From UHGV virus genome UHGV-0029170: 36,552 nucleotides of DNA; one strand, written 5' to 3'. The position numbers and the translations under genes are program-made. The stretch is from a virus. The notes beneath the pieces are model-generated. The model made no database searches, was not told the origin of the DNA, and was given only the letters and a program-made list of their open reading frames with translations. Below, one piece after another: positions 691-36,552 of the stretch. Within the stretch, counting starts at the first letter, position 1. The number at the start of each line of letters is the position of its first letter.

Positions 691-718
691 TTGTCATTCG
701 CATGGTTGCGTGTATAAT
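691..718 (+). promoter_or_regulatory. sigma70-like promoter candidate (TTGTCA-16 nt-TATAAT) for the plus-strand unit starting at 768
   Basis: TTGTCA at 691-696, 16-nt spacer, TATAAT at 713-718; lies in the divergent gap between the helicase start (677) and ORF 768. Confidence 0.4.
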
Positions 719-756
719 ACAGAGCAAATTTTATCGTGTTTAACAAAAAGTGCTGT
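700..756 (-). promoter_or_regulatory. Degenerate copy of the conserved cassette (Box A CAGCACTTTTTGTTAAAC) upstream of the helicase gene
   Basis: Reverse complement reads cAGCACTTTTTGTTAAACACGAT...TATTATAC, 20-30 nt upstream of helicase ATG at 677. Confidence 0.35.
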
Positions 757-767
757 GAGGTTAAATT

Positions 768-1169
768 ATGGAACAAATGGCAAAGGTAGACAAGCGAACT
801 TTGAACGGCAATAACGGGACGTCACGCGGGAAAGATAAGAAGCCCCGCAAGAAGCCGACAGGCTATTATGTCCTGAAGGATGAAGTAAGGGCGGGACTGA
901 CTACCAGAATGGAATTGGTGATCGAGGCATACGGCGGCATCGCCAAAACAGCAAAGGAGTTGGGCGTTAGCATCCAAGTTGTTCAGCAGTGGATTAAGCG
1001 CGGCATGATTTCAGCCGATGGTGCTTACTTGGTGCATAAGAGTTACCGCCGCAATGACTGCAAAGGCTTCAGGGCTTCATTTTGCCGCCCGGATCTCAGA
1101 TTCGACAGCAACGGCAAGCCGATTACGCGCCGATGCGACCGCCGCGAAATGCTCCGCGTAGTCCGATAG
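768..1169 (+). CDS. Putative HTH DNA-binding protein (Cro/YdaS-like motif), Arg-rich C-terminus
   Basis: ATG at 768 preceded by GAGG 8 nt upstream; segment IAKTAKELGVSIQVVQQWIKRG looks like a helix-turn-helix; function inferred. Confidence 0.4.
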   Translation: MEQMAKVDKRTLNGNNGTSRGKDKKPRKKPTGYYVLKDEVRAGLTTRMELVIEAYGGIAKTAKELGVSIQVVQQWIKRGMISADGAYLVHKSYRRNDCKGFRASFCRPDLRFDSNGKPITRRCDRREMLRVVR

Positions 1170-1189
1170 CACAATTTGACTAACTACCA

Positions 1190-1229
1190 AACGCCTACCG
1201 GGTTATGATTCTCGCGTGGGCGTTTTTTA
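1190..1229 (+). terminator. Possible weak intrinsic terminator after ORF 768-1169
   Basis: AACGCC (1190-1195) pairs with GGCGTT (1219-1224), followed by T-run 1224-1229; loop is long, so weak. Confidence 0.25.
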
Positions 1230-2207: not shown

Positions 2208-2703
2208 TTAAAACGTGAACAAATTTTAGGTAAGATTGATGATTTCAGTCTTACCTTTTTTTATGCCAAAAATTCAGCAACTTACCAACTGGTCGAACCA
2301 CTTTAGGTAAGATTTAGTAAGATGAATCTTACGTAAATTTCGCGCAAAATTTAACCAATTACACGCCATATATAGATAGTAAGTATATGATAAATAATAA
2401 TATTATTATTATTTCTCTATCTCTCTATACTTATCTTGGTAAGATTTCTCCGGGGTACGTGTCTTTTTTCGCTGGATTTCGCGCCAGATTTTTCATGGAT
2501 ATTCACCTATAGGGATCTTACCATCTTACCGATTTGCGTTAACTTTATGAAATGTATGGAAAAAACCACGTAAGATGCATCTTACTAAATCTTACGTAAA
2601 TTTCGCTCATTTTTTGACCAACCGCAGATAGCACTTTTTGACTTGCGCCGGGAATCGTCATGCGTATACTTAACGAAACGAAACCACAAATGGAGCAATA
2701 TCA
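2208..2703. repeat. AT-rich non-coding region with GGTAAGAT iterons, palindromes and direct repeats; candidate origin of replication / regulatory hub
   Basis: No ORF; GGTAAGA-N13-TCTTACC (2229-2255); GTAAGAT-2nt-ATCTTAC at 2317-2332 and 2570-2585; 18-bp direct repeat ATCTTACGTAAATTTCGC at 2326-2343 and 2589-2606; tandem ATCTTACC x2 at 2515-2530; pure A/T core 2367-2435. Confidence 0.5.
2628..2685 (+). promoter_or_regulatory. Conserved cassette copy in plus orientation (ATAGCACTTTTTGACTTGC...TATACTTAACGAAACGAAAC) upstream of exonuclease gene
   Basis: Shares Box A, a TATACT hexamer and the CGAAACGAAAC tail with the minus-strand copies; followed by RBS GGAG and ATG 2704. Confidence 0.5.
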
Positions 2704-3750
2704 ATGGCTGAAGCAATTTTCAGGGCATACACAAGCAGTGAATTGACCAACGAGCAATATCACGATCCTAATTCCTGGTGCGCGGAGTACGTTAGCGGCT
2801 CAAGCCTCGGCGAGATTTACGCAACATCCCCGGCGCACTGGAAATACAAGGTGCGCGAGGAAACCGCCGCGCTGGCGTTCGGAACCTGTTCGCATACCTG
2901 TATGCTTGAGACGGCAAAATTTAATGGCGAGTACCTGCGGGCGACTTCTCCTGGCGAGGTTAAAGATCTGATTACGTCGAAGTCGGCATTGTCTGCGAAG
3001 CTGAAAGCGTGTGGCCTGATTGGGACGTCCAACAAGGATTACCCGGAACTTCTGGAAATGGCATATCGCGCCGGGATTGACGTAAATGTTTGGTGGGCGA
3101 TTGAACTTTGCGACGAAAGCGCCGCGATGAACTCCGGGCGCAAGCTGGTTAAGGATGTTGATTTCGATGCCGTTGTTCAAATGCGAAGCGTGATGCTGGC
3201 CAACCCGCGACACGCCGCGTGTATCGAATCGCCTACCGCACAGCGTGAATTGTCAATCTTCGGTGAGATCTTCGGCGTCAAGGTCAAGGTTCGACTCGAT
3301 CATGTTGACGTTGTTTCAGATCCAGAACTAATCAAGGAGTGTGGGTTCAACCCGGATGAGGTTTTCGAGGTCGTGGTGATTACCGACTACAAAACCACGC
3401 AATCTTCCAAGCCTGACGATTTCGGGCGACTCGCCTTCAACTTGGGCTACTATCTCAAGATGGCATTGCAGCGCGATCTGTTCGTGAAGACTTACAACGA
3501 AAAACGCCCGGTAGTTGTCAGACTGCTAACGCAGGAGAAAAAATCACCGTTTGCTCCGCTGGCGTTCACCCTGACCAGCCAGCAGATCGAGATCGGTCGC
3601 AAGCAGTATCAAAGCGTGATTCATCAGTATGCGGAATGCGTGAAGCATGATTCATGGCCATCATATGAGTCAAACGCGGCGGAAGTCGTTTTGCCTACTC
3701 CGCAGTTTGTGAAATACATGTTCCCGGACGTATACGGCACAAATAGCTAA
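2704..3750 (+). CDS. PD-(D/E)xK family nuclease (putative recombination exonuclease)
   Basis: 348-aa ORF with RBS; D-x(n)-D/E-x-K-like segment ...DHVDVV...VVVITDYKTT; immediately upstream of Erf and SSB. Confidence 0.55.
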   Translation: MAEAIFRAYTSSELTNEQYHDPNSWCAEYVSGSSLGEIYATSPAHWKYKVREETAALAFGTCSHTCMLETAKFNGEYLRATSPGEVKDLITSKSALSAKLKACGLIGTSNKDYPELLEMAYRAGIDVNVWWAIELCDESAAMNSGRKLVKDVDFDAVVQMRSVMLANPRHAACIESPTAQRELSIFGEIFGVKVKVRLDHVDVVSDPELIKECGFNPDEVFEVVVITDYKTTQSSKPDDFGRLAFNLGYYLKMALQRDLFVKTYNEKRPVVVRLLTQEKKSPFAPLAFTLTSQQIEIGRKQYQSVIHQYAECVKHDSWPSYESNAAEVVLPTPQFVKYMFPDVYGTNS

Positions 3751-3809
3751 ACACTGGTTCGCACTTGTGATATAGTGCGCATTACCAATCAGGAAAAGGA
3801 AACTTTATC

Positions 3810-7477: not shown

Positions 7478-10400
7478 TTAGCTGAAAGAGTTACTGTTCG
7501 TGCGGAACGCAGTTGCCGTGATGTTATCAATTGTAACGGTGTAATCGGTGACGGCATCTCGACCAGTGGCCTTCACAAAGAAGCTAACATTGTTGTTATC
7601 AGCAACCAAGTCAGCAGCGAATCGAAGTTCTACCGCAGTAGTTCCGGTGGAGATGTTACCAGCATCAATATAAATGCGGCGAACAGCCTGCTGGCCGCCA
7701 ATGTTGAAAGTTACATCAACGGTATAGCCCAAGTTTGACGCGCCAGTTCCATATGTCTCACCAATCAGCGTGCAGGAGAGAACTACAGTCATCCCATAAC
7801 CACGATTCTGGTAAGATCCATCGCGCTGCACAGTCTGGTTGCGTCGTAGCGTCATGCTGTCATAGCGTTTTGCCACTGCTATATCTCCGATAAACGCTTC
7901 TGCCTGCACTGTACCCTTAAATATACCGTCAGTCGCATAGATCGTGCCGCGAACAGTGGTGTTCTGGAATTCAGACCCACCATTCTTATTGATCATCCAT
8001 CCTTGATCCCCGGCGATGTAGTTGTTGGACTGAATGACGTTACCGATCTTCGCGTTGGTAATCGAACCGTCCTGAATAAGCGCGTTATTCATGAAAACCT
8101 GGTCATTCTGCACAACAAACGGTAGCGTATAATCACCGGATGCCGCATTGCGGATAATGGCAAATCTATCAGCAATGAAAAGCACTTGCGAAACAACGCT
8201 TCCACCACTTGCTGTAAGCTGCATGGCCATCCCGGAATTATATTCCTGTCCGTTGTACTTTAGTCCAAGTTTCATTGTATACATGGATCCAACTCCATTA
8301 ACGTCAGCCCATGAGTCTAGTTTCTGATCTAGCGCTGCGGAGTTCTCTCCAATCCTTGCTGAAAGCGCCTCTTCAGATGTAACGCGAGCCTCAGTTTCAT
8401 TGGCTAGTGCCTCATTAACTTGAGTTAATCCAGCATTGAGGTTTTCGTTGAACTCTGCCGAGATCTGGTTAACCTGCTGCACCCTGGCTTCCGTCTCATT
8501 TGCGATGAGAACTTCTGCATGTTTAATTTCAGCTTTCCTCTTTCCATTCTCCTTTTTCATTATTCTAACGTCAGCATCATTCGCCAGCGCATTTTGGATG
8601 ATACTGTTAGCGTATTCATTGAGTTTTGCCGCGCTATCCTGCGCACTATCCTGAAGTTCTTTCATCGCATCGCTGTCGAGTATCTCATCAAGGATTGTAT
8701 CCGTGATGGCGTTAACGTCAGTAGAAGACATACCGCGAGCGTAATCAGTCCATGGTGAAACGTTACCGATCCTGTCGACACTTCGCGCCTTGTACCAGTT
8801 CACATAGCCAGCGGGCAAAATTGAGTGCCAGTATTCAGCCGCCGGGTAAGGAATCAGTGTAAGCAGGCTTGCATCCTGATCGGTTCCGCTTTGCGACTGG
8901 TAAAGCTCAATGTATGCCGTGTCTTCCGCACCTTCAGGCATGGCCCACTTAACGCGAATGCCAAAGATCTCATCGTCCGACGCAAAAAGGTTAATCGGGC
9001 CTTTTGGCGCTCCGACTTTCCCGGTCAGTGTGGCGGTTGCCAACGCAGACCACGGAGACGCTACATTCCCTCCGCTAATGCACCTTACGCGCGCCTGGTA
9101 TTCACCAGCATAAATCCCTTCAATGTCAACCTGCGTTGTCGCTGTGCGCGGCACGTTGTTCCAGTTGCCGCCATCCTTACGCCATTGCACCTCGTAAAGT
9201 TTAGCGTACTGCACGGCAGACCATCCGATTACCATCGTCTCGACGCTCATCCCCTGCACAATTCGCGAGAATGAACTAATCGACACGTTTTCCGGCGCTC
9301 CCATTGAATCCGGGTCAACAACCGAAGTTGGGCGGTCGTCAGTGATTACGCCGTTGTCGATCGCGTCGTACTTGTTCGGGTTGTATTGGGTGGCTGTGAT
9401 GGCGAAAGTAAATTCGTCGTCATCGCTCCCCTTCTCAATCCTGGTAACAACGTACTGTTCAGCCGCCAGTTGGTCACTTTCGATCAGGAATACGCTGTCC
9501 GGCGCAACATCGAAGTTATATCCCACGTTTAGCGTCAGGGTTTTGCCGTCTGCTGATACGTTGGCGATGGTTCGGCGCACTGGCTTGCCGTCGTCAGTGT
9601 TCAGAATCAGCGTATCGCCCGCCTTCGCGTCGCAGCGGAAAGCTAGGAAAACCTGCGTTCCCGTTACTTCCATAATGCGACCTGACAAAACCAGGTTAAA
9701 GGCAGATTGCCAATGCGGATCTGCAACGTAAATTACATCGCCGCATGACGGGATCATGCCCTCAAGACCAGTAGAAAACGAAACGGTGGTTGCGCTTAGG
9801 TTCGTTTGCAGAATCCAGCGCCCGCGGCGGTTCGCTTCTGTCCGTCTGGTGCAACCGATCGCCGTGATGCTTGTCGGGTTATGCCCGAACCGCATTGCAG
9901 CGTCAGGGTTAAATACTGGTTCAACGTCCTGCTCGTACTGGTTTTCTTCGTCGTCGAACATCACGTTGCACGATGTGTACATCGTTTTTTCGCTCGGAAA
10001 AGTTCGCACGAATACGCCGTCAACGACGTTATCAGCAGTGAACAGGTAAACCGGATCGCGTGGCTTGTCGACGATAATCGAAAGGCTTTCCCCGTTGTAG
10101 AACGTCATTCCACGGAAGGCGGAACAAACATCCCTTACCAACTGGAACGCCTCTACCTGCGACTGCACGATCATATCCATCAGGTAACGCGGTTCCATCC
10201 CGCCTCGATTGTCCGGCACAAGCTCATCACAATATTGCGCCACCTCATAGAGCGACCACTTGTCGACCGGGATCCCTAACTCGCGCTGGTCTAACCCATA
10301 ACGCTGATTCATGATCAGATCGTAAAGAACCCAAGCCGGGTTGTTGCTCCACGCCCATTTGAAAGTTCCGTCCCACGTCCCGGCGTATGTCCTGTTAACA

Positions 10401-11179: not shown

Positions 11180-11266
11180 CGTTTAGCCTCCTGTTAATAG
11201 TTTTGCAATTGTACACGACAAAAAGCCCGGAGGCTATGCCCCCAGGCCAAAAAGCGAATCGCTTAA

Positions 11267-13750: not shown

Positions 13751-16729
13751 TTAACCCCTCGTTTTCTCGTTTACGTATTTCGCAATGCGTCCGTTTTGGC
13801 TTAGTGCCTCCGTGAACATATCATTAACGATCTGCCTTACGCCCTGCTCTAAGCCCTTGCTATCCTGACCGGAACCCATCGTGATGTTCACGTCACCCAT
13901 GCTAAACACCATTGCTGCCGATGCCGCAACATTCCCGCCATTCGTCACACCAGATCCTGACGAACCGTTAGAGCCTACCAGACCGCCGGAAGCATATCCA
14001 CGCATCAGCCTGTATAAATTTTCCGGCCCTAATCGGCTGGTCGCCTCTTTGGTAAAGACGAATTCGCCGCCATGCACAACGCCTTTAGGTTCGTACTTGC
14101 CACCGTTGCCAGTATAGCCGCCGTTGGCGAACCCTTTGCTGAACATGCTGGCGAAGCTGAACGTACCGCCGCCGCCGAACGCAGCAGACATTGCATTGAA
14201 CAGCGCCATTTTGATTAGCATGCTGGTAATGTCACTAATCACGCTTCTGGCGAAGTCGCTGAAGCTGGCCTTACCCGTCATGACAAAATCAGTTAGCACG
14301 CTCGCCATCCCGTTAAATGCGTTTTTGGTGATGCTCCCGATATTGGAGTACACGTCATTAACTTCGTTTCCAATGTCAGCCCAGGCATGCGTGAATCCCG
14401 CTTTCCAGTCAAGCATCTGCGCATCCTGCTGCGCGTAAAACTGTTCGCTTGCTGCCTGCATCTGCTTAAATTGGGCGTCGTCAAGCGATCCTCCATTATT
14501 CTTCCAGTCCGCCGCCATCTGCGCGTTTGCCCTGTAGCGCTCCTGCTGCTTACTCCCCATCCCGGCGGTATCCTGAAGCGCTTTTGTTTTCTCAGCCATC
14601 TGGTTCTGATACTTCACCGACTTGTCAAGCAAGGCGTTCAGGCGCTGCTGCCTGACAATCTGATCGCCCACGATCGCTTTCTGTTCCGCCATAGCGATGA
14701 TACTTTGCTTATTGGCTAACATCTGCTTTTCGCTCTGCGTCAGCTTACGCTTGGCGCTCGCTTCTTCCAGCACCTGGAATTTTGCGACAGTGGTAAAGTA
14801 GTCTTTACGCTGCTGGCTGATTTTGTCGTCAAGCCCTTTGTGCTGCTGCAATACTTTCAACTGCGCCTGTAATGACAGCAATTCGGACTGATACTGTTCA
14901 TCGATCTTAACCCCGGCGTCTACCTGCTCCTTCCTGGCGTTTCGGTTCTTCAGGATATCCTTTTCTTCCTGATTTACCTTATCCTTTGTTGCACTGCTGT
15001 AGCCGCCGGACACGTTTTTGTTTTTGGCCGCGTCAATGTAACCCATTTCGCCTTTCGCGATCCTTGCCTGCTGCTCCGCAATGGTCTTCGCCAGTTCCGC
15101 TGATTTGGCTTTGGAATCCTTGATTAGCTGTTCTTGCTGTGCAAGAAAATCATTCCCAAAGTCACCCATGCCAGGCACTTTCTGCAACTGCCGACCAGCA
15201 TCAACGATGAATTGTGCGATCATGGCGTCGCCATCCGCAATCAGTTTCCTGATAACGTTGATGATAGATGAAACCGTATCAACAATAAGGTTTAGCGCGC
15301 CGACGGTGTGATCACCTACCCACTTCCAGGAGTCTGCGGCCCACTTTTTAATGTCAGTCCACATCGTTTCAAGCGGCGTTGCGCTGTCTGCGATATCCTT
15401 CAGGCGTTTATCCATCGTGTCAGCAAAGATTTTCGTTGCCGCTTCCGCTGCTGCCGTCTCACCTTTGGTTTTTCGCAAAGATTCGATGTAGGTTAACTGC
15501 CCTTCCTTTAGGAAATTAAACTGATCATTCAGTTCGGCAAGCCCCTTAACCGGATCCTTTGCTATAGAGTCAAAGTAACCAGTAATGGTCTTTTCGCTCT
15601 CACCGGTCTGCGCCGCCCATTCCGCCGTAGTCTTCGTGATCGCCTTAATCTGGTTGATGCTGTATTTTCCAGATTGAGCCAGTGACGTTGCGATCGCCTG
15701 AATGCTTACGACAGTAGCCGATGATGTTTTGTTGATTTCATCGGTTAGGGAGGTGATTTGCCCGGTAGTTGTTGCAGCATAGCCACCAGTCAGCACCAAT
15801 GCATTCGCTAGATCTCGCTGTGACTTCCAGGAGTCGTACCCAGCTTTGGCGATAGCCGCAAGAGCAACACCCAAAGCAACCGCGCCAACTGTTAGCGGAT
15901 TAATGTAGCTCAACAAAACTTTGAACGTGTTCCCGATACCGCCGAAGCTATCCTTGATTTGCCCGCCTTGCTGAATAGCCACTAACCATACTGGCATCCC
16001 GGAAGCAAGAGACGTTACTACGTCAGTGATCTGCGCCGGAAGTTGGCGCATCGCCATTTTATATTGACCTGCTGAAATTCCAGCAAGCCCCATAGCATTC
16101 TGCTGTTTCTTTAACGCCTGCTCTTGCTGCTTCATGGCGTTAATGAACGGTGCCGATTCAGTTGAAACGCCTAATTGTGCCGCCTTCATTTCCAGCAGTT
16201 CGGCGCGAGTCTTGCCGATCGAGTCTGCTTGCTGTTTCAGGCTGGCGACAAAATCACGCCCGGCGTTGGTCGCCTTCTGCTTCGCCTCAGCCTCAGCGAT
16301 TGCCGCGCGGCCTTCTTCGGTTAGTGCCAACTGCTGCTGTCTCAGCTTGTTGGTGGTCGACTCAATGACAGCACCCAGGCGGAAGAATTCCTTATCTGGC
16401 ACAAGGCCCAATTGCCAGGCCTTATCCAGTTCTTCCGAAGCCTTGCGCAAGTTAGCCATTTTTGCGATCGTGGGATCGATAGCGCCCGCGATGTTGTTGA
16501 AATTGGTCTTGGCCTTTTCCGTGGTTTTCTTTTGGTTCTGCAACGCGCGGTTCATTTCCTCAGTCTGCGCCGTCGCGCGCTTCTCAGCGTCCGCCAGCGA
16601 CTGAAGACCCGCCCCGGTTTGTTGGCTTTGGTTCTTTAGTTCGGCAAGTGATCGCACCGCTCTGTCAACCTGCGACACGTCAACGCCGAACGTCAAGCCA
16701 GCTACTTTATCAGCCATGTTAGCCCCCAT
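13751..16729 (-). CDS. Tail tape measure protein
   Basis: 992-aa ORF, largely coiled-coil (Ala/Gln/Lys-rich heptads) with Gly-rich C-terminal part, located between chaperone G/GT and M; start probably at internal MADKV (16717). Confidence 0.85.
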   Translation of the reverse strand: MGANMADKVAGLTFGVDVSQVDRAVRSLAELKNQSQQTGAGLQSLADAEKRATAQTEEMNRALQNQKKTTEKAKTNFNNIAGAIDPTIAKMANLRKASEELDKAWQLGLVPDKEFFRLGAVIESTTNKLRQQQLALTEEGRAAIAEAEAKQKATNAGRDFVASLKQQADSIGKTRAELLEMKAAQLGVSTESAPFINAMKQQEQALKKQQNAMGLAGISAGQYKMAMRQLPAQITDVVTSLASGMPVWLVAIQQGGQIKDSFGGIGNTFKVLLSYINPLTVGAVALGVALAAIAKAGYDSWKSQRDLANALVLTGGYAATTTGQITSLTDEINKTSSATVVSIQAIATSLAQSGKYSINQIKAITKTTAEWAAQTGESEKTITGYFDSIAKDPVKGLAELNDQFNFLKEGQLTYIESLRKTKGETAAAEAATKIFADTMDKRLKDIADSATPLETMWTDIKKWAADSWKWVGDHTVGALNLIVDTVSSIINVIRKLIADGDAMIAQFIVDAGRQLQKVPGMGDFGNDFLAQQEQLIKDSKAKSAELAKTIAEQQARIAKGEMGYIDAAKNKNVSGGYSSATKDKVNQEEKDILKNRNARKEQVDAGVKIDEQYQSELLSLQAQLKVLQQHKGLDDKISQQRKDYFTTVAKFQVLEEASAKRKLTQSEKQMLANKQSIIAMAEQKAIVGDQIVRQQRLNALLDKSVKYQNQMAEKTKALQDTAGMGSKQQERYRANAQMAADWKNNGGSLDDAQFKQMQAASEQFYAQQDAQMLDWKAGFTHAWADIGNEVNDVYSNIGSITKNAFNGMASVLTDFVMTGKASFSDFARSVISDITSMLIKMALFNAMSAAFGGGGTFSFASMFSKGFANGGYTGNGGKYEPKGVVHGGEFVFTKEATSRLGPENLYRLMRGYASGGLVGSNGSSGSGVTNGGNVAASAAMVFSMGDVNITMGSGQDSKGLEQGVRQIVNDMFTEALSQNGRIAKYVNEKTRG

Positions 16730-18716: not shown

Positions 18717-19182
18717 TTTTCGCCCTCGCTCGTTTGATTGCTTCAGTCACATATACGCCTAATCGGATCGCGACTACTCCCATAACGCCATTCGGCGCTT
18801 GTTTTGAGTGTCCGTATTCGAGCGCGTTAGCATAGATTAGCATGTTACTGAACCAGATCGAAGTAATCCCGGCTCCCTTTGTGAACAGCGCAATGTTCGC
18901 GTTACCGTTCTGGATAGTCTTCGTCCCGGTCTGGTCGTATGCGTTGATTGCGTAAAGAGGAGCGCGATTAAAAGTAATTTGCCAGTTACCACGGAAGCGG
19001 CCTGTATCGACCGGAGAGCGCATCACAAGATCCTTTAGGATATCCTCGCACGTCATGCGTACAACGTCCTCCAGTGCGTCACCAGCCGCCTTGCACCATG
19101 CATCAATAGCCCCCGTGAACTCCCGGATGGTGTAGTTAGCCATAAGTCGCCACCCTTCGCAAAACTGGGCGGTAGGCAACAA
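18706..19182 (-). CDS. Neck/tail completion protein (HK97 gp10-like)
   Basis: Motif SPVDTGRFRGNW resembles the conserved DTGxLRxSW of the HK97 gp10 family; start possibly at internal MANYTIREF (19143). Confidence 0.5.
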   Translation of the reverse strand: MLPTAQFCEGWRLMANYTIREFTGAIDAWCKAAGDALEDVVRMTCEDILKDLVMRSPVDTGRFRGNWQITFNRAPLYAINAYDQTGTKTIQNGNANIALFTKGAGITSIWFSNMLIYANALEYGHSKQAPNGVMGVVAIRLGVYVTEAIKRARAKNAL

Positions 19183-20384: not shown

Positions 20385-21326
20385 TTACACGCCAGAAAGA
20401 ATGGCGATGGTCAGCGGACGATACACGATGAGGCCAGTGCATTTGGAGGTGCAAGGCACTTTGAAATGCAGGTCTTTCGGCTGCATCGGCAGCATGTTGA
20501 AGCGCTCCGGAATCTCGATCGACATATTCATCGGATCTTTTTCGTATGCCAGCACGCCTTTAGTACCTGCGCCATCGATATCTTCCAGTTCCGCAATCGC
20601 GGTGATGGTGATATTCGGGTAGTTCTCTTTGAACCACGAGAGGTAACTTTCCGTAACGTCCGGCATTTTCTGCGTCAGCAGACGGCGCTTGGACGGCGGG
20701 ATCACGATGTTGGTAACATGGTGACGACCCAGCGTTACATCTTCGATCGTATCGATCAGATCCTGCAACTCGCTGAATGCGATTTCCGGCGTAGTCCAGC
20801 TTGCGGAGGTCAGGCGGTTAATGTTCGGCTGATCGAACACGCTAACGATGTTGTGCGGCGCGGAACCTTTGAACACCAGATCGTTAACAAGGGTTTCATG
20901 ACCTTCGCGAGCAAGGGACGCTTTGCGGTCGCTCAGGCTGGAACCAAGCGCCTGACCAGCTTTGATCTCGTCGATGGAGATAAACCACGCGTTACCCAGG
21001 CGGAAGACTTTACCAGTTTTCTCGGACGCCATCGCTTCAACGGTCGGCAGGTCGTCGGTATAATCCGCGATGATTTTCGCAGAGGTCACGCCGTCGAATT
21101 CCAGCCATTCGAAGTTTTTCGTTACCGGACTCAGTTCGGTAGTAACCGGGAAAAGCTCCAGCACACCAGTTTGCGGATAAGCCTGCTCGTACTGGCGATT
21201 TAAGAGTTGGGTAAGCTGATTAACAGTCCAGATGCCGTGCGCATCGAGTTTGTTAGCGTCGATGCCCATACCCTGCATCGCAACCTTGATTGCATTCTGC
21301 TCGAATGCATCTAATTTCATAGTCAT
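20385..21326 (-). CDS. Major capsid protein
   Basis: 313-aa ORF flanked by strong hairpin terminators, after decoration and scaffold genes; positional and size inference. Confidence 0.65.
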   Translation of the reverse strand: MTMKLDAFEQNAIKVAMQGMGIDANKLDAHGIWTVNQLTQLLNRQYEQAYPQTGVLELFPVTTELSPVTKNFEWLEFDGVTSAKIIADYTDDLPTVEAMASEKTGKVFRLGNAWFISIDEIKAGQALGSSLSDRKASLAREGHETLVNDLVFKGSAPHNIVSVFDQPNINRLTSASWTTPEIAFSELQDLIDTIEDVTLGRHHVTNIVIPPSKRRLLTQKMPDVTESYLSWFKENYPNITITAIAELEDIDGAGTKGVLAYEKDPMNMSIEIPERFNMLPMQPKDLHFKVPCTSKCTGLIVYRPLTIAILSGV

Positions 21327-21407
21327 GTGAAACTCCTGTTTGTGTGTTTTGACTTAACGAGATGAAGAATAGCACGAATTGCTAAACGGTCAAAGGTTTT
21401 TTTAACG

Positions 21408-21436
21408 CATGAAAAAGGGGCCGAAGCCCCTATTTT
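21408..21436 (-). terminator. Hairpin + U-tract after decoration-protein gene
   Basis: GGGGC-TTCG-GCCCC (21417-21430) with T-runs on both sides. Confidence 0.55.
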
Positions 21437-21949
21437 TTACTCGCCACCAGCGGCGGGAGCGACTGGCGCGGTTGCATCCTGCGTTAGCTGGATTTTCACC
21501 AGGATATCGCCATCTTTGTTTTTGAACCACTCGCCAGTGTGAGTGTACCCGGTTTTGATTAGGCCAGCATCGCCTTTTGCTACGGTGCCATCAGCGCCGA
21601 AAGTTACCAGCGACTTAAACGCGCAATCTGCTGCGGTTACGGTAGATGCAGCGCGACACCACACGCGGCCATGCGTCATAACGTTTACGGCGGAATACTG
21701 GTCGTATTTGAATTCCGGCGATTGGTAATGGGAATGAGTGGTTACGCCCACCAGAACAGCATCGGCAGTTTTAGCGGTATCGACCACTTTATGACCATCA
21801 ACAACGCCACCGGACAACGCGACCAGAACGCCAGTTAAAATGTCATTTGCAGCAGCACAGGTGCCGTCGATGTTGTACAGCGAAGTGTCGGCGATCTGGC
21901 CCGGAATGCAAATATCGCGCTTGCGGGTATAGGTTGCAGGAATTGCCAT
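21437..21949 (-). CDS. Head decoration / accessory capsid protein, putative
   Basis: 170-aa Gly/Ala/Thr-rich ORF between scaffold and major capsid gene; positional inference. Confidence 0.4.
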   Translation of the reverse strand: MAIPATYTRKRDICIPGQIADTSLYNIDGTCAAANDILTGVLVALSGGVVDGHKVVDTAKTADAVLVGVTTHSHYQSPEFKYDQYSAVNVMTHGRVWCRAASTVTAADCAFKSLVTFGADGTVAKGDAGLIKTGYTHTGEWFKNKDGDILVKIQLTQDATAPVAPAAGGE

Positions 21950-23904: not shown

Positions 23905-25207
23905 CCTCCTCGGTGTTATTCAGGATCTGCGTGCTTTGCGTTTTGGTCTTGCCTGACCCTGGCGTGCGATCCGGTAGCTGCTTCTGTCCCGGCGCATTGC
24001 CCTTCAGTTTCAGTTCTGGAACCATTGCGGACAGGGTATCGCGCGCTTCGTTCGCGTCAATGACCTGATCTGTAACTAGTCCTTGCACTGCTTCGGCGTT
24101 TTTCTTAAAGATATCAGCCTTCTCTGAATCTGTCGGAAGTGACAGCGGTTCGAACTCTACGCTGAAGTCTTCCTCAGTGACGATGAATTGTAGCAGGAAT
24201 TCTAACAGCGGTTTGTAGTCGCCGTTGCGCTTCCGCTCCACCAGCTTATAAAACGTCTGCAACGCAGTGTTTTGACTGGCACTAACGCCGCCTGTGTTTT
24301 TGTTCTTCAGCACAATTTCGTGAATACCTGACAGCGCGACAATCCGATCCATTTTGGCGGAAAGGAATTCCGGAATGCCTGAAATATCGGAGTTGATAAC
24401 GGTGTAATCCTCATCGGTCGCGTCAATCCCGATCGTGTTGCCAACGCCGGAATTCGCGTCAACCTGGGCCATGCGCAATCGGGCCGCGTATTCGCCTTCC
24501 TTGTCGTCGCAGATTAGAGCAAGACCTTTGGCCTTCCATACGCCCTGCTGCTTACGCTTCAGCAACTGCGTTGCGAGGCACTCCGAATAATCGTAATCAA
24601 GAATCGCTTCAATCATCGACTTGTTCAGCACCGTGCCGCCAGCGCCCTTGTTGAGTTTTCGCACCTTGTTGGTTACACGCTCGCCGTCGATGTAGTGCAT
24701 GCGGGTATAATGCACGTTAAAGTCGCTTCCGCCGTTTAGAGGCTTGACGGTGTACATTTTAGGCTTGCCGAATCGTGGGCTTCGCGGGTTCTTCTCCTCC
24801 TCCGCTACGGACACCGAATCGTAGTCGTAAACGACAATTGATTCCAGCGGCTTACCGCGCTTCGCGGCTGAAGTCAGCATGCGGCCATCGTTAACCATCG
24901 CCAGGACGTAAGAGCCACCATACAGGCGCGCCCAGCAGAGGGCATCGGTGATTTGCGGCTCAAGTTTAAGGCCGTCCCACTCTGACTGGAATTTCGTATT
25001 ATCGGAGACGCCGTTAAGCTGGAAGCCGGGCGACACCATTTCTTCCGGGATCACGTCAACAATCTTTTTCGCCAGTCCGTTGCTGTGATAGAACTCCTCG
25101 ACTTGCGACATATTCCCGAACGTGCTTGCAATCATCGCCGTGGTTGACGCGTACCCCGCGCCACCATTGAAGATCTGATTGTAATCATCCATCTTGATAG
25201 CTTTCAT
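23888..25207 (-). CDS. Portal protein
   Basis: 439-aa ORF immediately downstream of large terminase gene. Confidence 0.75.
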   Translation of the reverse strand: MKAIKMDDYNQIFNGGAGYASTTAMIASTFGNMSQVEEFYHSNGLAKKIVDVIPEEMVSPGFQLNGVSDNTKFQSEWDGLKLEPQITDALCWARLYGGSYVLAMVNDGRMLTSAAKRGKPLESIVVYDYDSVSVAEEEKNPRSPRFGKPKMYTVKPLNGGSDFNVHYTRMHYIDGERVTNKVRKLNKGAGGTVLNKSMIEAILDYDYSECLATQLLKRKQQGVWKAKGLALICDDKEGEYAARLRMAQVDANSGVGNTIGIDATDEDYTVINSDISGIPEFLSAKMDRIVALSGIHEIVLKNKNTGGVSASQNTALQTFYKLVERKRNGDYKPLLEFLLQFIVTEEDFSVEFEPLSLPTDSEKADIFKKNAEAVQGLVTDQVIDANEARDTLSAMVPELKLKGNAPGQKQLPDRTPGSGKTKTQSTQILNNTEEGGDES

Positions 25208-25253: not shown

Positions 25254-26858
25254 TTAGCGGCCCAGCTTTTTCAATCCTGCTAGGCGTTTCATTCGCTCTA
25301 CCGGGTCATCGCTCAGGTTCATTTCCATGTTCGCGGCGTCAAATACGTTGTCGCAAATGTCATCGTGTGGATGTGAATCGTCATAGGTAAATGCGCTCAT
25401 TTCCGCCACAAGCTCCGCAATGAACGGATGGTTGTCCGGCAGTACGACGCGGCCACCCTTGATAATTGGCTGCGCATCCATCGCGCGAGTAACCTTATCT
25501 TTGTCGCGCTGAACCGGGACGATCTCACCCATGCCATTAACTGCTTTGGTCAGATCCTGGATTAGACCCGTACCACTCGCCTTGTCTTCGATGTAAATCT
25601 TTCGCAGATTCCCGCATTCCTTGTTTCCGCGCCAGCACTGCTTAATGAATGCCTCGGCCTGCACACGCAAATCCGGCGCTTCCCACTTGCCACGAATTCC
25701 ATCAATGAAGTAGACGCGATCGCGGTACTTACCCCAATAGCACAACACGGAATAGTCGTTTAGCTCATTCGTCTTCTGCGCGGTATCCGCCGTAATGAAG
25801 GTGTACTCGAACTTGTCCGGGCGCGGTTCATGCGCCTTTTCGCTGTCGCCGTAATAGCGCCACCATTCCGACTTAAATACGTTGCCGCCCAATGCGATCG
25901 GCTCCTGCTGATACTGCGAAAGGAATGTATAAAGATCGGCCTCGCGCAAGGCAACCAGGTTCTCGATCGATTCGTTGTCCTCCCAAAATGACCAGTATTC
26001 GACACCATCAATGACAACCGACGGACCGGATAACACGTCGCGCTCGAACTCGGGACGCAACCAGTCAGGAAGCGATTCGCCGTATTCCCTCGTTACCATC
26101 GCCGGAATAACAATGCGATCGAATTCGATAGCCATCCCGCCGCTCATCATGAACCAGGTGGAATCCTGTGCATGCAGCCGCTGCTGTACGGATAGGATCG
26201 GCGTTTCGTCGCCTTGTTTCTTCTTCGCTCGACGTGATCGAATGGTGTTCTTCAGCAAGGTGTGGCTCTTTTCGCGCTTCACCTTTGAGAACATATCATC
26301 AGGCTTGTCGATATCATCCAGCGCGATTAGGCCACTGAAACCAGGCGTCATGTACCCACCACGCTTACCGACGATCTGACCACCAGACGAACGGGACACC
26401 ATTTCCAGCCTTACGCGTTCATTGTCATCCAGAACCTGGAATTCGTCGATCTGCTTCCGCCCGAATTTAGAGGGCCATAGCTCCTGCCATTCGCCCGATG
26501 AAAAGATCTTGATTACGCGGTCGGAGTTGCCTTTTGAAAGCGCATCACCCTGCGAGATCTGAAGGTTGCGAACCTTCCGGCACTTGAGATACGCATACGG
26601 CGCGAGGTGGATAGAAAACGCTTCGGTTTTCGTCGAACCCGGCGCAACGTTTACGATCGTGCTTTTGCGCTTTCCGGCGATAATTTCATCTACCGTGTGG
26701 CAAAAGTAGGAGTGGTGCCAGTTCCACATCAGCTTTTCGCCCTGGATAATCTGAAACCAGATCTTCAGGAACAGCGAAAAGTTGCGCGTGCTCAATGCCT
26801 TGATTGCCAGCTTATCGGCTGGCTTCAGGTCTTCCCAAATAATCATTTCGTCATTCAT
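25254..26858 (-). CDS. Terminase large subunit
   Basis: 534-aa ORF; N-terminal ATPase-like region (VAPGSTKTEAF) and C-terminal acidic nuclease-like motifs (HPHDDICDNVFDA); follows small terminase gene. Confidence 0.75.
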   Translation of the reverse strand: MNDEMIIWEDLKPADKLAIKALSTRNFSLFLKIWFQIIQGEKLMWNWHHSYFCHTVDEIIAGKRKSTIVNVAPGSTKTEAFSIHLAPYAYLKCRKVRNLQISQGDALSKGNSDRVIKIFSSGEWQELWPSKFGRKQIDEFQVLDDNERVRLEMVSRSSGGQIVGKRGGYMTPGFSGLIALDDIDKPDDMFSKVKREKSHTLLKNTIRSRRAKKKQGDETPILSVQQRLHAQDSTWFMMSGGMAIEFDRIVIPAMVTREYGESLPDWLRPEFERDVLSGPSVVIDGVEYWSFWEDNESIENLVALREADLYTFLSQYQQEPIALGGNVFKSEWWRYYGDSEKAHEPRPDKFEYTFITADTAQKTNELNDYSVLCYWGKYRDRVYFIDGIRGKWEAPDLRVQAEAFIKQCWRGNKECGNLRKIYIEDKASGTGLIQDLTKAVNGMGEIVPVQRDKDKVTRAMDAQPIIKGGRVVLPDNHPFIAELVAEMSAFTYDDSHPHDDICDNVFDAANMEMNLSDDPVERMKRLAGLKKLGR

Positions 26859-27422: not shown

Positions 27423-27469
27423 GTATACCAGATTGCAGGCACAAAAAAACCCGCCGAAGCGGGTTATGT
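27423..27469 (-). promoter_or_regulatory. Terminator hairpin (27448-27465) followed by extended -10-like TGgTATACT: early/late junction
   Basis: Minus strand: AACCCGC-TTCG-GCGGGTT + T7 directly after stop at 27470, then CTGGTATACTCGCAA and RBS/ATG of terminase small subunit. Confidence 0.5.
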
Positions 27470-27733
27470 TCATATCAGTTTGTTACGCCGCTTCAGTGTT
27501 TTCTGAAGTGATGCAAAAGGCTCACAGTCAACATACGGGAGCGGCGAAAAAGCAATTCGTTTTGCGATACCTTCCGGATCGCCAATTTTTTCCCAACGCG
27601 CAGTTTTCTTATTGTACATCATGGCAGCAAAAGTGCCTTCATGTACCCGCTTTGAAAGGCGCTCAACAAGGCGAGCCGCGCCAACGTGATAGCCTATGAC
27701 AAGCATTAAAAAAGCAACAATCAGAGTTACCAT
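27470..27733 (-). CDS. Small membrane protein (N-terminal TM helix)
   Basis: 87 aa; MVTLIVAFLMLVIGYHVGAA hydrophobic start; stop/start overlap with upstream 62-aa ORF. Confidence 0.4.
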   Translation of the reverse strand: MVTLIVAFLMLVIGYHVGAARLVERLSKRVHEGTFAAMMYNKKTARWEKIGDPEGIAKRIAFSPLPYVDCEPFASLQKTLKRRNKLI

Positions 27734-29546: not shown

Positions 29547-29558
29547 TGCTGTAACTCC

Positions 29559-29621
29559 GTTTCGTTTCGATGGGGTAACTATACCAGCTTACCCCCGATC
29601 GGTTTTAGCAATTCGTGCTAT
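29559..29621 (-). promoter_or_regulatory. Conserved promoter/operator cassette copy
   Basis: Minus strand: ATAGCACGAATTGCTAAAACCGATCGGGGGTAAGCTGGTATAGTTACCCCATCGAAACG. Confidence 0.5.
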
Positions 29622-30430: not shown

Positions 30431-30479
30431 GGGATAGTATGCACCATCCCCGGACGTTCGTTTTAGCAATTAGTGCTAT
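30431..30479 (-). promoter_or_regulatory. Conserved promoter/operator cassette copy
   Basis: Minus strand: ATAGCACTAATTGCTAAAACGAACGTCCGGGGATGGTGCATACTATCCC. Confidence 0.45.
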
Positions 30480-31212: not shown

Positions 31213-31268
31213 TTCAGTAACGCCACTTTATCAAATGACGTTACGGCAGTTTTAACAAAAAGTGCTAT
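31213..31268 (-). promoter_or_regulatory. Conserved cassette copy (variant with GTAACG...CGTTAC inverted repeat)
   Basis: Minus strand: ATAGCACTTTTTGTTAAAACTGCCGTAACGTCATTTGATAAAGTGGCGTTACTG. Confidence 0.45.
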
Positions 31269-32399: not shown

Positions 32400-32448
32400 T
32401 GGCCATTATGCCCGATCTGCTGACCGGGCGTTTAGCAAAAAGTGCTAT
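32400..32448 (-). promoter_or_regulatory. Conserved promoter/operator cassette copy
   Basis: Minus strand: ATAGCACTTTTTGCTAAACGCCCGGTCAGCAGATCGGGCATAATGGCC. Confidence 0.5.
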
Positions 32449-32941: not shown

Positions 32942-32990
32942 TGATAATTATGCCCGATCCTCTGACCGGGCGTTTAGCAATGCGTGCTAT
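32942..32990 (-). promoter_or_regulatory. Conserved promoter/operator cassette copy
   Basis: Minus strand: ATAGCACGCATTGCTAAACGCCCGGTCAGAGGATCGGGCATAATTATCAC. Confidence 0.5.
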
Positions 32991-33530: not shown

Positions 33531-33544
33531 GTTTACGCTCCTCT

Positions 33545-33602
33545 GTTTCGATGGGGTAATGATAGCGCATCACCCCGATTGCGTTTTAACAAAAAGTGCT
33601 AT
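33545..33602 (-). promoter_or_regulatory. Conserved promoter/operator cassette copy
   Basis: Minus strand: ATAGCACTTTTTGTTAAAACGCAATCGGGGTGATGCGCTATCATTACCCCATCGAAAC. Confidence 0.5.
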
Positions 33603-34093: not shown

Positions 34094-34109
34094 TGTGGTG
34101 CTCCGTTGT

Positions 34110-34169
34110 TCGTTTCGATGGGGTTACTATAGCAAGCCGCCCCGATCGTGTTTTAACAAAAAGTGCTAT
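34110..34169 (-). promoter_or_regulatory. Conserved promoter/operator cassette copy (extended -10-like TGCTATAGT)
   Basis: Minus strand: ATAGCACTTTTTGTTAAAACACGATCGGGGCGGCTTGCTATAGTAACCCCATCGAAACGAAC. Confidence 0.5.
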
Positions 34170-34761: not shown

Positions 34762-34769
34762 CACCTCAG

Positions 34770-34830
34770 TTCGTTGTCGATGGGTAAATAATACCGGATC
34801 TCGCCATCGGCGTTTTAGCAAAAAGTGCTA
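34770..34830 (-). promoter_or_regulatory. Conserved promoter/operator cassette copy
   Basis: Minus strand: ATAGCACTTTTTGCTAAAACGCCGATGGCGAGATCCGGTATTATTTACCCATCGACAACGAAC. Confidence 0.5.
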
Positions 34831-35037
34831 TCTTTCCACCTCGTGCATATCGCCAACCGAAAGATAATAAGCGATATCAAGGCGGCTCATTGTGGGATGA
34901 GGCCAGCCGCATTCATGCCAGATAACATCGCCCTCGCCTTTAGTCCACATGGTTTCGCCATCCCAGCGCCAAAGGCGGTTATTGAGGCGCGATCCGTAGA
35001 CCGCGCCAGGTTTTACATCGCTCGCCTTAAAATTCAT
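34828..35037 (-). CDS. Hypothetical protein
   Basis: ORF 34828-35088; likely start at internal ATG 35037 (MNFKASDVKPG...). Confidence 0.35.
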   Translation of the reverse strand: MNFKASDVKPGAVYGSRLNNRLWRWDGETMWTKGEGDVIWHECGWPHPTMSRLDIAYYLSVGDMHEVER

Positions 35038-35191: not shown

Positions 35192-35255
35192 GGTTCGTTG
35201 TCGATGAAGAGATAATACCCGATCGCTCTGACCGGGTTTTAACAAAAAGTGCTAT
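35192..35255 (-). promoter_or_regulatory. Conserved promoter/operator cassette copy
   Basis: Minus strand: ATAGCACTTTTTGTTAAAACCCGGTCAGAGCGATCGGGGTATTATCTCTTCATCGACAACGAAC. Confidence 0.5.
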
Positions 35256-35559: not shown

Positions 35560-36093
35560 TTATTCTCCTGTGATTTTGGCTTTCAGTGCCATTGTGTAAC
35601 CGTTGTAAAGCAGGCCTTTTGGCATCACTTCGTCAATGATGGCAAGGCATCTTTCCCGCTCAGAGGTAGCGCCCTGCTTTCTGTACGCTTCCGCCTCCAT
35701 GTGCGAGCCAGTCATTGCGTCGAACTCGGTAAAGACGGAGATTAACCCCACCCCCAGGCTCACGCGCAACACCTCGCCCGGCTCCAGGAGTTTCAGCAAC
35801 GGCCTGCGGAAATGGTTGTCGACAGGATGAACGCCGAACTTCTCCGCGAACTCCTCCGCCGTCATCTGGATACGCCGCCCGCCATCCAGGAACATGCGCC
35901 GGATCTCGGAAGAGCGGTTGCCAGTGAATGTGCCTTCCGGCTTCGCGGCTTCCTGGCTCCGCCCGGCTGGCCTGGTGGCGTCACCAAACGTGATGGATTG
36001 CAGCCATTCATGGTACGCGGCCTGTTTTTCTGCGTCGTACTGCATCCACTCGGACACGTCGACTTCCTCGAACTCATAACCTTTATATTGCAT
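35560..36093 (-). CDS. Hypothetical protein, first gene of the minus-strand small-gene array
   Basis: ORF 35560-36108; likely start ATG 36093 (MQYKGYEFEE...) with GGGGGAA RBS; no recognisable motif. Confidence 0.45.
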   Translation of the reverse strand: MQYKGYEFEEVDVSEWMQYDAEKQAAYHEWLQSITFGDATRPAGRSQEAAKPEGTFTGNRSSEIRRMFLDGGRRIQMTAEEFAEKFGVHPVDNHFRRPLLKLLEPGEVLRVSLGVGLISVFTEFDAMTGSHMEAEAYRKQGATSERERCLAIIDEVMPKGLLYNGYTMALKAKITGE

Positions 36094-36287
36094 GTGTTTC
36101 CCCCACATTTACGGCGTTTGTGTGTGTTTGGTAAGGCTATCTTACTGGCTCAAGGCCTTGTCGTCAAAGGGTTTGTGCGTGTGTGGTAAGATTCGGAAGC
36201 ATCCCCTATATACCCCTTTACATATATCGCGCGGCGGAACATCTAAAATTTACGGCTCTCGCAAGATGATTCCGGTAGCCATGCCGG

Positions 36288-36420
36288 GAGAAATCTTACC
36301 AAACATATATAGATAGAGAGAGTAATAATAATAATATTGTTATTTATCATATACTTATATATTTATTATAGTCTTATATTGGTCACTTTTTGTGCAATTT
36401 TCAGGTAAGATTTTTCCTCC
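36288..36420. repeat. AT-rich core flanked by inverted GGAGAAATCTTACC / GGTAAGATTTTTCC arms; partial inverted copy of 2367-2452
   Basis: 36288-36357 matches the reverse complement of 2367-2452 over ~70-85 bp (shared GGAGAAATCTTACCAA...AATAATAATAATATTRTTATTTATCATATACTTA); second arm at 36404-36417. Confidence 0.5.
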
Positions 36421-36552
36421 CCCACATTCCCACACGACGCAAGTGTTGGTGAAACACACCTGACGTTTTGCTGGCTTCGAGCGGCAAATTATGTGCATGG
36501 TGCATACATCTATGCAATTCGTTGCACATCATGAAGCACTCCATCATCACAT

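Follow-up and report, generated by a model that had tools for sequence, protein, structure and literature searches.

Why should a sequence that recurs ahead of early genes, each time pointing with transcription, also stand alone and back to front before the major capsid gene of a bacteriophage? The question arises in UHGV-0029170, a virus genome of 36,552 nucleotides that was analyzed over its whole length (the window). It belongs to a Klebsiella phage of the genus Webervirus (Drexlerviridae, T1-like): 4 kb around the orphan box described here are 97% identical to many Klebsiella phages of that genus. An initial annotation of this DNA had marked an orphan copy of a repeated element, Box A, between the decoration-protein and major capsid genes and had proposed that one regulator might link early and late transcription. 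The orphan is a genuine, non-random, and deeply conserved feature, and its sequence is best explained as a reversed marbox, the type of site used by the host regulators MarA, SoxS, and Rob, embedded in the promoter of the capsid gene (here called P_mcp). We give a probability of about 0.55 to the reading in which host MarA-family proteins drive the early promoters of the phage and occupy, and probably repress, the capsid promoter.

The orphan box as a probable marbox

The orphan lies where it had been placed, in a 110-bp gap between two head genes:

21369-21388, plus strand: orphan Box A, the 20-bp marbox-matching sequence ATAGCACGAATTGCTAAACG, reversed relative to capsid-gene transcription
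20385-21326, minus strand: major capsid protein gene, served by P_mcp (from the list of open reading frames [ORFs]; relatives annotate it "major head protein")
21437-21949, minus strand: decoration-like protein gene, upstream of the capsid gene (ORF list; "capsid decoration protein" in phage KA1-2, IgG-domain decoration protein in phage TLS)

The 19-mer originally described, ATAGCACGAATTGCTAAAC, was found on the plus strand at 21369-21387, and its near identity to the Box A of the copy at 29559 amounts to 1 difference in 19 bases from the minus-strand sequence at 29603-29621. Searching the window for the 19-mer with ≤3 mismatches returned 5 copies, against 0.01 expected, and a relaxed search returned 13 cassette copies plus the orphan. 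The annotation had proposed a weight-matrix scan, to be judged against shuffled sequence, and the orphan passes it clearly. With a matrix trained on nine early copies only, the orphan not among them, the orphan scored 28.7 bits, whereas the best scores in 200 Markov randomizations averaged 9.9 and peaked at 19.0. The orphan does stand without the rest of the cassette: there is no conserved leader and no -10 hexamer 18 bp downstream, where the plus strand reads GCATGA. What had gone unmentioned is its orientation. Each cassette copy points with transcription, and the orphan is inverted.

The name "dyad" has to be given up, since conservation is asymmetric (ATAGCAC ... TTGYTAAA) and A17 and A18 have no mirror partners. 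An information profile of 55 phage boxes shows positions 1 to 7 and 11 to 18 conserved and positions 8 to 10 free, the pattern to be expected when a monomer binds through two different recognition helices. Two conserved recognition elements around a free, A/T-rich stretch, with no dyad symmetry, are also what characterizes a marbox. Marboxes have been described by a 20-mer consensus for MarA/SoxS/Rob, AYNGCACNNWNNRYYAAAYN (PMC2064960), by a second published string, GCAHWWWWTGYYAAA (PMC6900184), and by a consensus from chromatin immunoprecipitation sequencing (ChIP-seq), gcactaattgctaaa, for which ≥14 of 15 matching positions define a conserved marbox (Sharma et al. 2017, PMC5684230). The orphan matches the 20-mer with 0 mismatches (chance would give 0.02 sites of this quality per window), and its core, GCACGAATTGCTAAA, matches the ChIP-seq consensus at 14 of 15 positions, within the conserved class; the copy at 30460-30479 matches at 15 of 15. 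All 14 specified positions of the marbox consensus are present in the box.

The count across the genome was made with the literature 20-mer and not with a phage-derived matrix. At ≤1 mismatch it gave 13 matches in the window, against 0.53 expected. Relatives behaved alike (KpV522, 15 matches; KpCol1, 16; ESCO41, 15; T1, 21; <1 expected in each), and phage T7 had 3. The best explanation of these matches is that Box A is a marbox, an asymmetric 20-bp putative site for one molecule of host MarA, SoxS, or Rob, or of RamA in Klebsiella.

A phage-encoded protein of this kind was considered and dropped. Pfam searches with 10 ORFs (nine early ones and the small terminase subunit) found no AraC/XylS-type (MarA/Rob) homologue, tblastn with Rob found none in five genomes, and relatives have none annotated. 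When viral contigs were scanned with the pattern TTGACNNTTTARCNNNNNNTGMTAT, T1-type, window-type, and KpCol1-type sequences came up together with many promoters of no relation; the pattern is too degenerate. Full-text literature searches found no paper linking marboxes to T1-like phages, with most subscription journals outside their coverage, so that earlier recognition is possible. One further marbox-like 20-mer, ATGGCACTGAAAGCCAAAAT (1 mismatch), lies on the minus strand at 35573-35592, inside the 3' end of ORF 35560-36108 and 15 nt before the next start codon; it has no -10 and is probably chance or a relic.

A second sequence had been put forward as a relative of Box A and a perfect palindrome:

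36513-36526, no strand assigned: TGCAATTCGTTGCA, judged unrelated to Box A

The sequence itself is there, inside a small gp01-like ORF near the genome end. With TGCAACGAATTGCA as its reverse complement, it is no perfect palindrome; 5-bp arms flank a non-symmetric 4-nt center, and the window holds 52 inverted repeats of this 5-4-5 type against ~40 expected. The proposed kinship with Box A does not hold up either. The best nearby match to the box consensus has 4 mismatches, the site is missing from the top matrix matches, and the two sequences share a single 9-mer; ~4.9 such 9-mer matches per window are expected by chance, and one occurs at each of five other places as well. We therefore reject the right-edge sequence as a chance resemblance.

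A reversed box in the capsid promoter

A promoter scan of the minus strand returned TTGACC-16-TATTCT with an upstream TG, a complete sigma-70 promoter just past the decoration-gene terminator. The order along the minus strand is stop codon, hairpin (21431-21416) plus T-run, A7 tract, -35, spacer, -10, ~40 nt, and ATG:

21416-21431, either strand: bidirectional intrinsic terminator hairpin AGGGGCTTCGGCCCCT plus T-run (two-strand terminator scan; terminator annotation in KpV522; dominant hairpin in the fold)
21397-21403, minus strand: A7 tract at ~-46 to -40 of P_mcp, a putative UP element, kept in the anchored alignment of ten phages
21388-21393, minus strand: -35 of P_mcp, TTGACC (promoter scan; TTG invariant in ten aligned relatives)
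21366-21374, minus strand: extended -10 of P_mcp (TG at 21374-21373, c, TATTCT at 21371-21366), with a predicted start near 21359

The 16-bp spacer, GTTTAGCAATTCGTGC, is the marbox in reverse: the GCAC end of the marbox gives the TG of the extended -10, and its ATA gives the TAT of the -10 hexamer. The box is on the plus strand and the capsid gene on the minus strand, and it sits within the core promoter, between -35 and -10, a placement of the rob and pbpG type. The KpV522 record has a 28-bp promoter annotated at the homologous place. From its elements, P_mcp should be a strong sigma-70 promoter by itself. The sequence thus favors the proposal that Box A is a regulator site tying early and capsid transcription to one factor; it does not favor a simple cassette fragment, since the orphan is an inverted copy in a different type of promoter.

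Three other roles for the orphan were rejected. A plus-strand promoter fired from it would have no -10 and would meet the terminator 27 bp on. If the reversed box acted on a downstream promoter in the class I manner, the start site would lie within the capsid coding region. A role at the RNA level finds no Rfam match at E values up to 1, and the intergenic RNA has an unremarkable fold (z = -1.4), the terminator hairpin alone standing out.

Other late operons also restart with extended -10 promoters straight after terminators, without a marbox (27440-27470 and 11200-11215): TGGTATACT, ahead of the small terminase gene, comes after the hairpin at 27448-27465, and GTGTACAAT lies upstream of the gene for tail protein J. 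Among the late promoters of the window, only that of the capsid gene contains a box.

How far this arrangement extends was read from a -10-anchored alignment of ten phages: Webervirus (three types), Nouzillyvirus ESCO41, Kyungwonvirus CS01, Hanrivervirus egaa, Tlsvirus Stevie, Pocis76, Warwickvirus PeterMerian, and T1. The TTG of the -35, the reversed box ([G/C]TTTAACAAAAA[G/A]TGC in most), and TATnnT are conserved, and both flanks have diverged. The reversed box is kept in the spacer in at least eight lineages (Webervirus, Nouzillyvirus, Kyungwonvirus, Hanrivervirus, Tlsvirus, Pocis76, Warwickvirus, and T1). Promoter spacers normally vary, yet the conserved bases here are exactly those that a marbox requires, and the free middle of the box is free.

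In T1, another reversed box precedes the tape-measure chaperone gene, and forward boxes abut the start codons of the small terminase and tail protein J genes and leave no room for a promoter. These extra boxes are at 18831-18850, 8362-8381, and 25021-25040 in T1; the window has no counterparts there. ESCO41 has one such forward box, at its tail protein J gene (25496-25515).

The same anatomy raises the possibility that no trans-acting factor is involved. RNA polymerase might read Box A directly, as a UP-like element or a shifted -35, and the orphan would then be a spacer derived from the box and kept for its TG, TAT, and A/T-richness. In its favor, the TG and TAT of P_mcp do come from the reversed box, a Webervirus clade that keeps TG and -10 tolerates the absence of the G of GCAC, and "UP enhancer elements" and stoperators are among the possibilities named for the related repeat of phage TLS (PMC11447400). 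The bases themselves speak otherwise: TTGYTA is ~5 bp too far from the -10 for a -35, the invariant, G/C-containing ATAGCAC is unlike a UP element, and the TTTAAC/TTTAGC next to the -35, which has no sigma-70 contact role, is kept in at least eight lineages, as the second recognition element of a marbox requires. We consider this explanation the least probable of those discussed here.

The forward cassettes

In the window, minus-strand genes run from ~7.4 kb to the right end as tail genes, head genes, terminase, and then ~25 small early genes; the left 7 kb holds plus-strand recombination and replication genes. Outside the capsid gap, Box A is part of a cassette with the layout aaATAGCAC-nnn-TTGyTAAAac, 18 bp (17 in a few), and a -10-like hexamer (TATAGT, TATTAT, CATAAT, etc.). 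In many cassettes a conserved leader, CCCATCGAAACGAAC, follows the -10 and precedes a ribosome-binding site and ATG. The 13 copies are as follows:

29578-29621, minus strand: marbox 29602-29621, ATAGCACGAATTGCTAAAAC, 18 bp, TATAGT at 29578-29583 (the copy with which the orphan was originally compared)
30436-30479, minus strand: marbox 30460-30479, core GCACTAATTGCTAAA, 18 bp, CATACT
31225-31268, minus strand: marbox 31249-31268, 18 bp, TAAAGT
32405-32448, minus strand: marbox 32429-32448, 18 bp, CATAAT
32947-32990, minus strand: marbox 32971-32990, 18 bp, CATAAT
33559-33602, minus strand: marbox 33583-33602, 18 bp, TATCAT
34126-34169, minus strand: marbox 34150-34169, 18 bp, TATAGT
34788-34831, minus strand: marbox 34812-34831, 18 bp, TATTAT
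35212-35255, minus strand: marbox 35236-35255, 18 bp, TATTAT
714-756, minus strand: helicase operon, marbox 737-756, ACAGCACTTTTTGTTAAACA (0 mismatches), 17 bp, TATTAT
1166-1209, plus strand: variant upstream of the primase gene, ATAGCACAATTTGACTAACT (2 mismatches), 18 bp, TATGAT
2628-2670, plus strand: variant upstream of the exonuclease VIII gene, ATAGCACTTTTTGACTTGCG, second recognition element degenerate, 17 bp, TATACT
3734-3776, plus strand: upstream of the erf gene, ACGGCACAAATAGCTAAACA (0 mismatches), 17 bp, TATAGT; kept in KpV522, KpCol1, and T1

A -10-like hexamer lies 17 to 19 bp downstream of 55 of the 65 boxes in four genomes, at exactly 18 bp in 48, against a background rate of 4.3%. 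The box center falls near -41/-42, and nothing resembling a -35 is present at 17 bp from the -10. Class II promoters of MarA, SoxS, and Rob have this form, with a forward marbox overlapping the -35 and clustering near -41 (PMC6900184, PMC12052159). We read two of the host promoters directly from Escherichia coli K-12. At micF, the marbox ACAGCACTGAATGTCAAAAC is followed by 18 bp, TAGAAT, 7 bp, and the known 5' end of MicF; at fumC, 18 to 19 bp separate the marbox from the -10. By every sequence criterion, the 13 phage cassettes are class II marbox promoters.

Other explanations of the cassette were tried and rejected. TTGYTA keeps a constant 21 to 22 bp from the -10, ~5 bp too far to be a -35. 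The sigma-54 consensus (-24 GG/-12 GC) is TGGCAC-N5-TTGCW with an invariant GG; the box, TAGCAC-N3-TTGC, has AG and not GG, its spacing is 2 bp short, and a sigma-70 -10 follows. A sigma-32 promoter might be suspected from CCCCAT in the leader, but the -35-like element is ~30 bp off and the motif is not in all copies. To our knowledge, no site for a UP element, Fis, IHF, CRP/FNR, or LysR-type regulator fits the invariant ATAGCAC.

Some features of the cassettes stand apart from the box. Many have a GC-rich hairpin within the 18 bp between marbox and -10, followed by a T-rich -10 (35217-35237, 32411-32428, and 32953-32970). This hairpin is terminator-like in the scan, and KpV522 has an annotated terminator at 40043-40076, so that terminator and restart promoter appear interleaved. 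The leader, (C)CCATCGAAACGAAC, begins 2 to 3 nt past the -10 (29557-29575, 33540-33556, 34106-34123, 34768-34785, 35193-35209, and also 2671-2685), and many early mRNAs would therefore have the same 5' end. At 691-756, two promoters stand face to face: a sigma-70-type TTGTCA-16-TATAAT (691-718, plus strand) for a regulator gene and the marbox cassette of the helicase operon, whose -10 at 714-719 (minus strand) overlaps the -10 of the former. The two directions may thus compete.

That regulator gene offers a second candidate for the factor that reads Box A:

768-1169, plus strand: gene for a 133-amino-acid "transcriptional regulator" with a single helix-turn-helix (HTH; Cro/YdaS-like), a rival binder (phrog_2856 at 1e-75)

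Box A could be the operator of this or of an unannotated early phage protein, its likeness to a marbox being convergent or coincidental. The gene adjoins two boxes (737-756 and 1166-1185), and its product is 55 to 92% identical in T1, ESCO41, and KpCol1, with the HTH helix conserved. Its own affiliations are loose: Pfam HTH matches are weak and below family cutoffs, and a structure-database search yielded only weak single-HTH matches. The boxes are much more uniform than host marboxes, which fits a phage-encoded binder, and the TAGCA-N5-TGCTA part of the box is a dyad in C14 variants. A palindromic operator for a dimeric HTH protein would have two-fold symmetry and no fixed polarity, whereas the box profile is asymmetric and 55 of 65 boxes keep a fixed polarity to the -10; this holds against a dimeric single-HTH protein at the promoter copies. 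Moreover, the early promoters have to be active when no phage protein has yet been made, although they lack a -35 at a workable spacing, and a phage operator would not account for agreement at all 14 specified marbox positions or for a -10 spacing that equals that of micF to the base. A phage-encoded binder appears unlikely, although it is the strongest of the alternatives to a host regulator that we weighed.

A separate repeat occurs in the same region. Two copies of an inverted repeat of ~126 bp, 81% identical and with a very AT-rich core, lie at 36287-36412 and 2325-2451, one between the primase and exonuclease VIII genes and the other upstream of the first early operon near the genome end. 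Flanking 8-mers, GGTAAGAT/ATCTTACC, occur at 2229, 2306, 2438, 2515, 2523, 36185, 36293, and 36404. This repeat could be an origin, an iteron, or a packaging-related element.

A proposed switch and its relation to known systems

From the sequence match, geometry, promoter anatomy, and conservation, we infer binding by host proteins and the following scheme. The cassettes would be the early and middle promoters of the phage; at each, a bound MarA-family activator would contact the alpha C-terminal domain (alpha-CTD) of RNA polymerase and region 4 of sigma-70 and so recruit the polymerase. On the orphan, a monomer would cover ~-13 to -32 of P_mcp, overlap the TG and -10, and abut the -35, and would most likely hinder polymerase binding or promoter opening, as at rob and pbpG. 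The factor that fires the early promoters would then also hold the capsid promoter down until it becomes limiting. Relief, we infer, might come from titration by replicating genomes with ~15 to 20 marboxes each or from Lon-dependent turnover of MarA and SoxS, a turnover stated in the literature.

The direction of the effect at P_mcp might also be the opposite. At flgBP2, MarA bound at -16 to -30 activates a sigma-28 promoter by distorting the base pair at -11, with no polymerase contact (PMC12781870). Binding at the orphan could likewise stimulate P_mcp by bending or distorting DNA by the -10, and early and capsid promoters would be coactivated. The orphan core, at ~-13 to -27, is placed much like the flgBP2 site, and the -10 of the window, TATTCT, is imperfect. 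Set against this, the flgBP2 mechanism offsets a melting defect of sigma-28, and P_mcp, with its near-consensus -35, TG, and A-11/T-7, needs no such help; the box also covers the TG and bases 1 to 3 of the -10. Moreover, the sigma-70 cases with a marbox in the core promoter, pbpG and, reportedly, rob, are repressed. Coactivation therefore seems to us improbable, less so only than direct reading of the box by polymerase.

Several points weigh against the proposal that host MarA-family proteins serve as early activators and capsid repressors. Unstressed cells contain little MarA and SoxS, and Rob is described as mostly sequestered (PMC5684230), so that dependence on them is not obviously advantageous for a fast virulent phage. 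A Keio-collection screen for host genes that the T1-like phage LL5 needs makes no mention of rob, marA, or soxS; redundancy of the three regulators could explain that silence. Activation of flgBP2 from between -35 and -10 makes the sign of the effect at P_mcp uncertain, and the uniformity of the phage boxes, far greater than that of host marboxes, would also fit a dedicated phage-encoded binder. In a large Webervirus clade (KpCol1, Roth44, and KLPPOU149) and in F20, the orphan reads ATATCAC, having lost the G of GCAC, with -35, TG, and -10 retained. The early boxes of KpCol1, the clade member with a whole-genome scan, are intact. Marbox function of the orphan would thus be dispensable or weakened in that clade and cannot be essential. 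Rogunavirus e4/1c is without the reversed-box arrangement.

More tentatively than for the window itself, we extend the role of host MarA-family regulators to the family. Drexlerviridae, including T1, may run their early and middle program from ~15 to 20 consensus class II marbox promoters per genome and carry a reversed marbox in the capsid promoter, with MarA, SoxS, Rob, or RamA as co-sigma factor and early-to-late timer. If this were true, infection efficiency would depend on the stress state of the host (antibiotics, salicylate, bile salts, oxidative stress, and ramR or marR resistance mutations), and replicating phage DNA would titrate MarA-family regulators away from host resistance genes. 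Widely used therapy phages of Klebsiella and E. coli would be wired transcriptionally to the regulators that drive multidrug efflux, with a bearing on phage-antibiotic combinations and on the response of marR and ramR resistance mutants. It would give a phage without its own polymerase or sigma factor a compact means of separating early from capsid expression, and the orphan would be the first phage example of a repressive marbox placement of the rob/pbpG type.

The nearest relative of Box A in the phage literature is a 21-nt direct repeat of phage TLS, aaATAGCACnnnTTGnTAAAA, present in 21 copies and, by the same account, found in T1, Rtp, and Rogue1 as well (German, Kropinski et al. 2024, PMC11447400). 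Its function was left open (stoperator, enhancer site, or UP element), and neither marbox nor MarA is mentioned (PMC11447400). The orphan, reading gaATAGCACgaaTTGcTAAAc, fits this repeat. The TLS repeats are described as pointing with transcription and as placed ~76 bases ahead of a start codon (PMC11447400); the orphan runs against transcription, with 43 bp between its near end and the capsid ATG. Its direct counterpart is DR7 of TLS, atatagcattttttgttaaac (negative strand, 15044..15024), which is likewise on the strand opposite to transcription and lies between the decoration gene (14557..14997) and the capsid gene (15087..16061; Supplementary Table S1, PMC11447400). DR7 was listed without comment, and no promoter was predicted there (PMC11447400). 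Reading the repeat as a marbox turns what was left unexplained in 2024 (PMC11447400) into an experimentally testable question. The repeat family is thus already cataloged in TLS, and in the literature searched no paper calls it a marbox.

The cassettes may be compared with two promoter classes. In T4 middle promoters, a MotA box centered at -30 replaces the -35, and MotA and AsiA are phage encoded. The cassettes resemble these as a phage promoter class in which an activator box takes the place of the -35 and the sigma-70 -10 is retained. They differ in that the box is centered near -41 and equals the site of a host regulator, no phage activator having been found in the searches described above. 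The 13 sibling cassettes are closer to micF and fumC, with a forward marbox over the -35 position and 17 to 18 bp to the -10, although the phage boxes are much nearer to consensus than the host ones. In the class II complex at micF, resolved by cryo-electron microscopy, SoxS touches alpha-CTD and region 4 of sigma-70 and behaves like a co-sigma factor. The orphan departs from micF and fumC in both respects, being reversed, with its center near -20 of P_mcp, and having no -10 at 18 bp.

For the orphan, the comparison is with marboxes inside the core promoter. At flgBP2, as at P_mcp, the marbox lies between -35 and -10 and adjoins the -10, but flgBP2 is sigma-28 dependent, has a melting defect, and is activated, whereas P_mcp looks like a strong sigma-70 promoter. 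At pbpG, a marbox in the spacer of a single sigma-70 promoter mediates direct repression by MarA, SoxS, and Rob (PMC12052159). The pbpG promoter, TTGACG-ATCGCACTTTTTGCTCGT-TATGAT, has a marbox overlapping the spacer with the same GCACTTTTTGCT core as the phage boxes. It differs in that its marbox is forward and the orphan is reversed, with 0 mismatches, suggesting that reversed orientation may not be obligatory for repression.

The closest parallel is rob. Marboxes are in reversed orientation at rob, purA, and hdeA. The reversed marbox of rob, between the promoter hexamers, reportedly allows MarA to repress by steric hindrance, in work ascribed to Schneiders & Levy 2006 and McMurry & Levy 2010. 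Read in the same register, the rob promoter of E. coli K-12 has a 16-bp spacer and AGCAAAAAATGC followed by TATTAT, against AACAAAAAATGC and TATTAT in ESCO41 and AGCAATTCGTGC and TATTCT in the window; rob and ESCO41 are identical at 17 of 18 bases across AGCAAAAAATGCTATTAT. Thus, in rob as in the phage promoters, a reversed marbox fills the 16 bp between the hexamers and reaches into the -10 in an identical register. At rob, the second recognition element of the marbox is degenerate and the -35 poor, whereas the phage site is a full-consensus marbox accompanied by a strong -35, TG, and an A-tract, set before a late structural gene of a virulent phage and predicted to act in repression.

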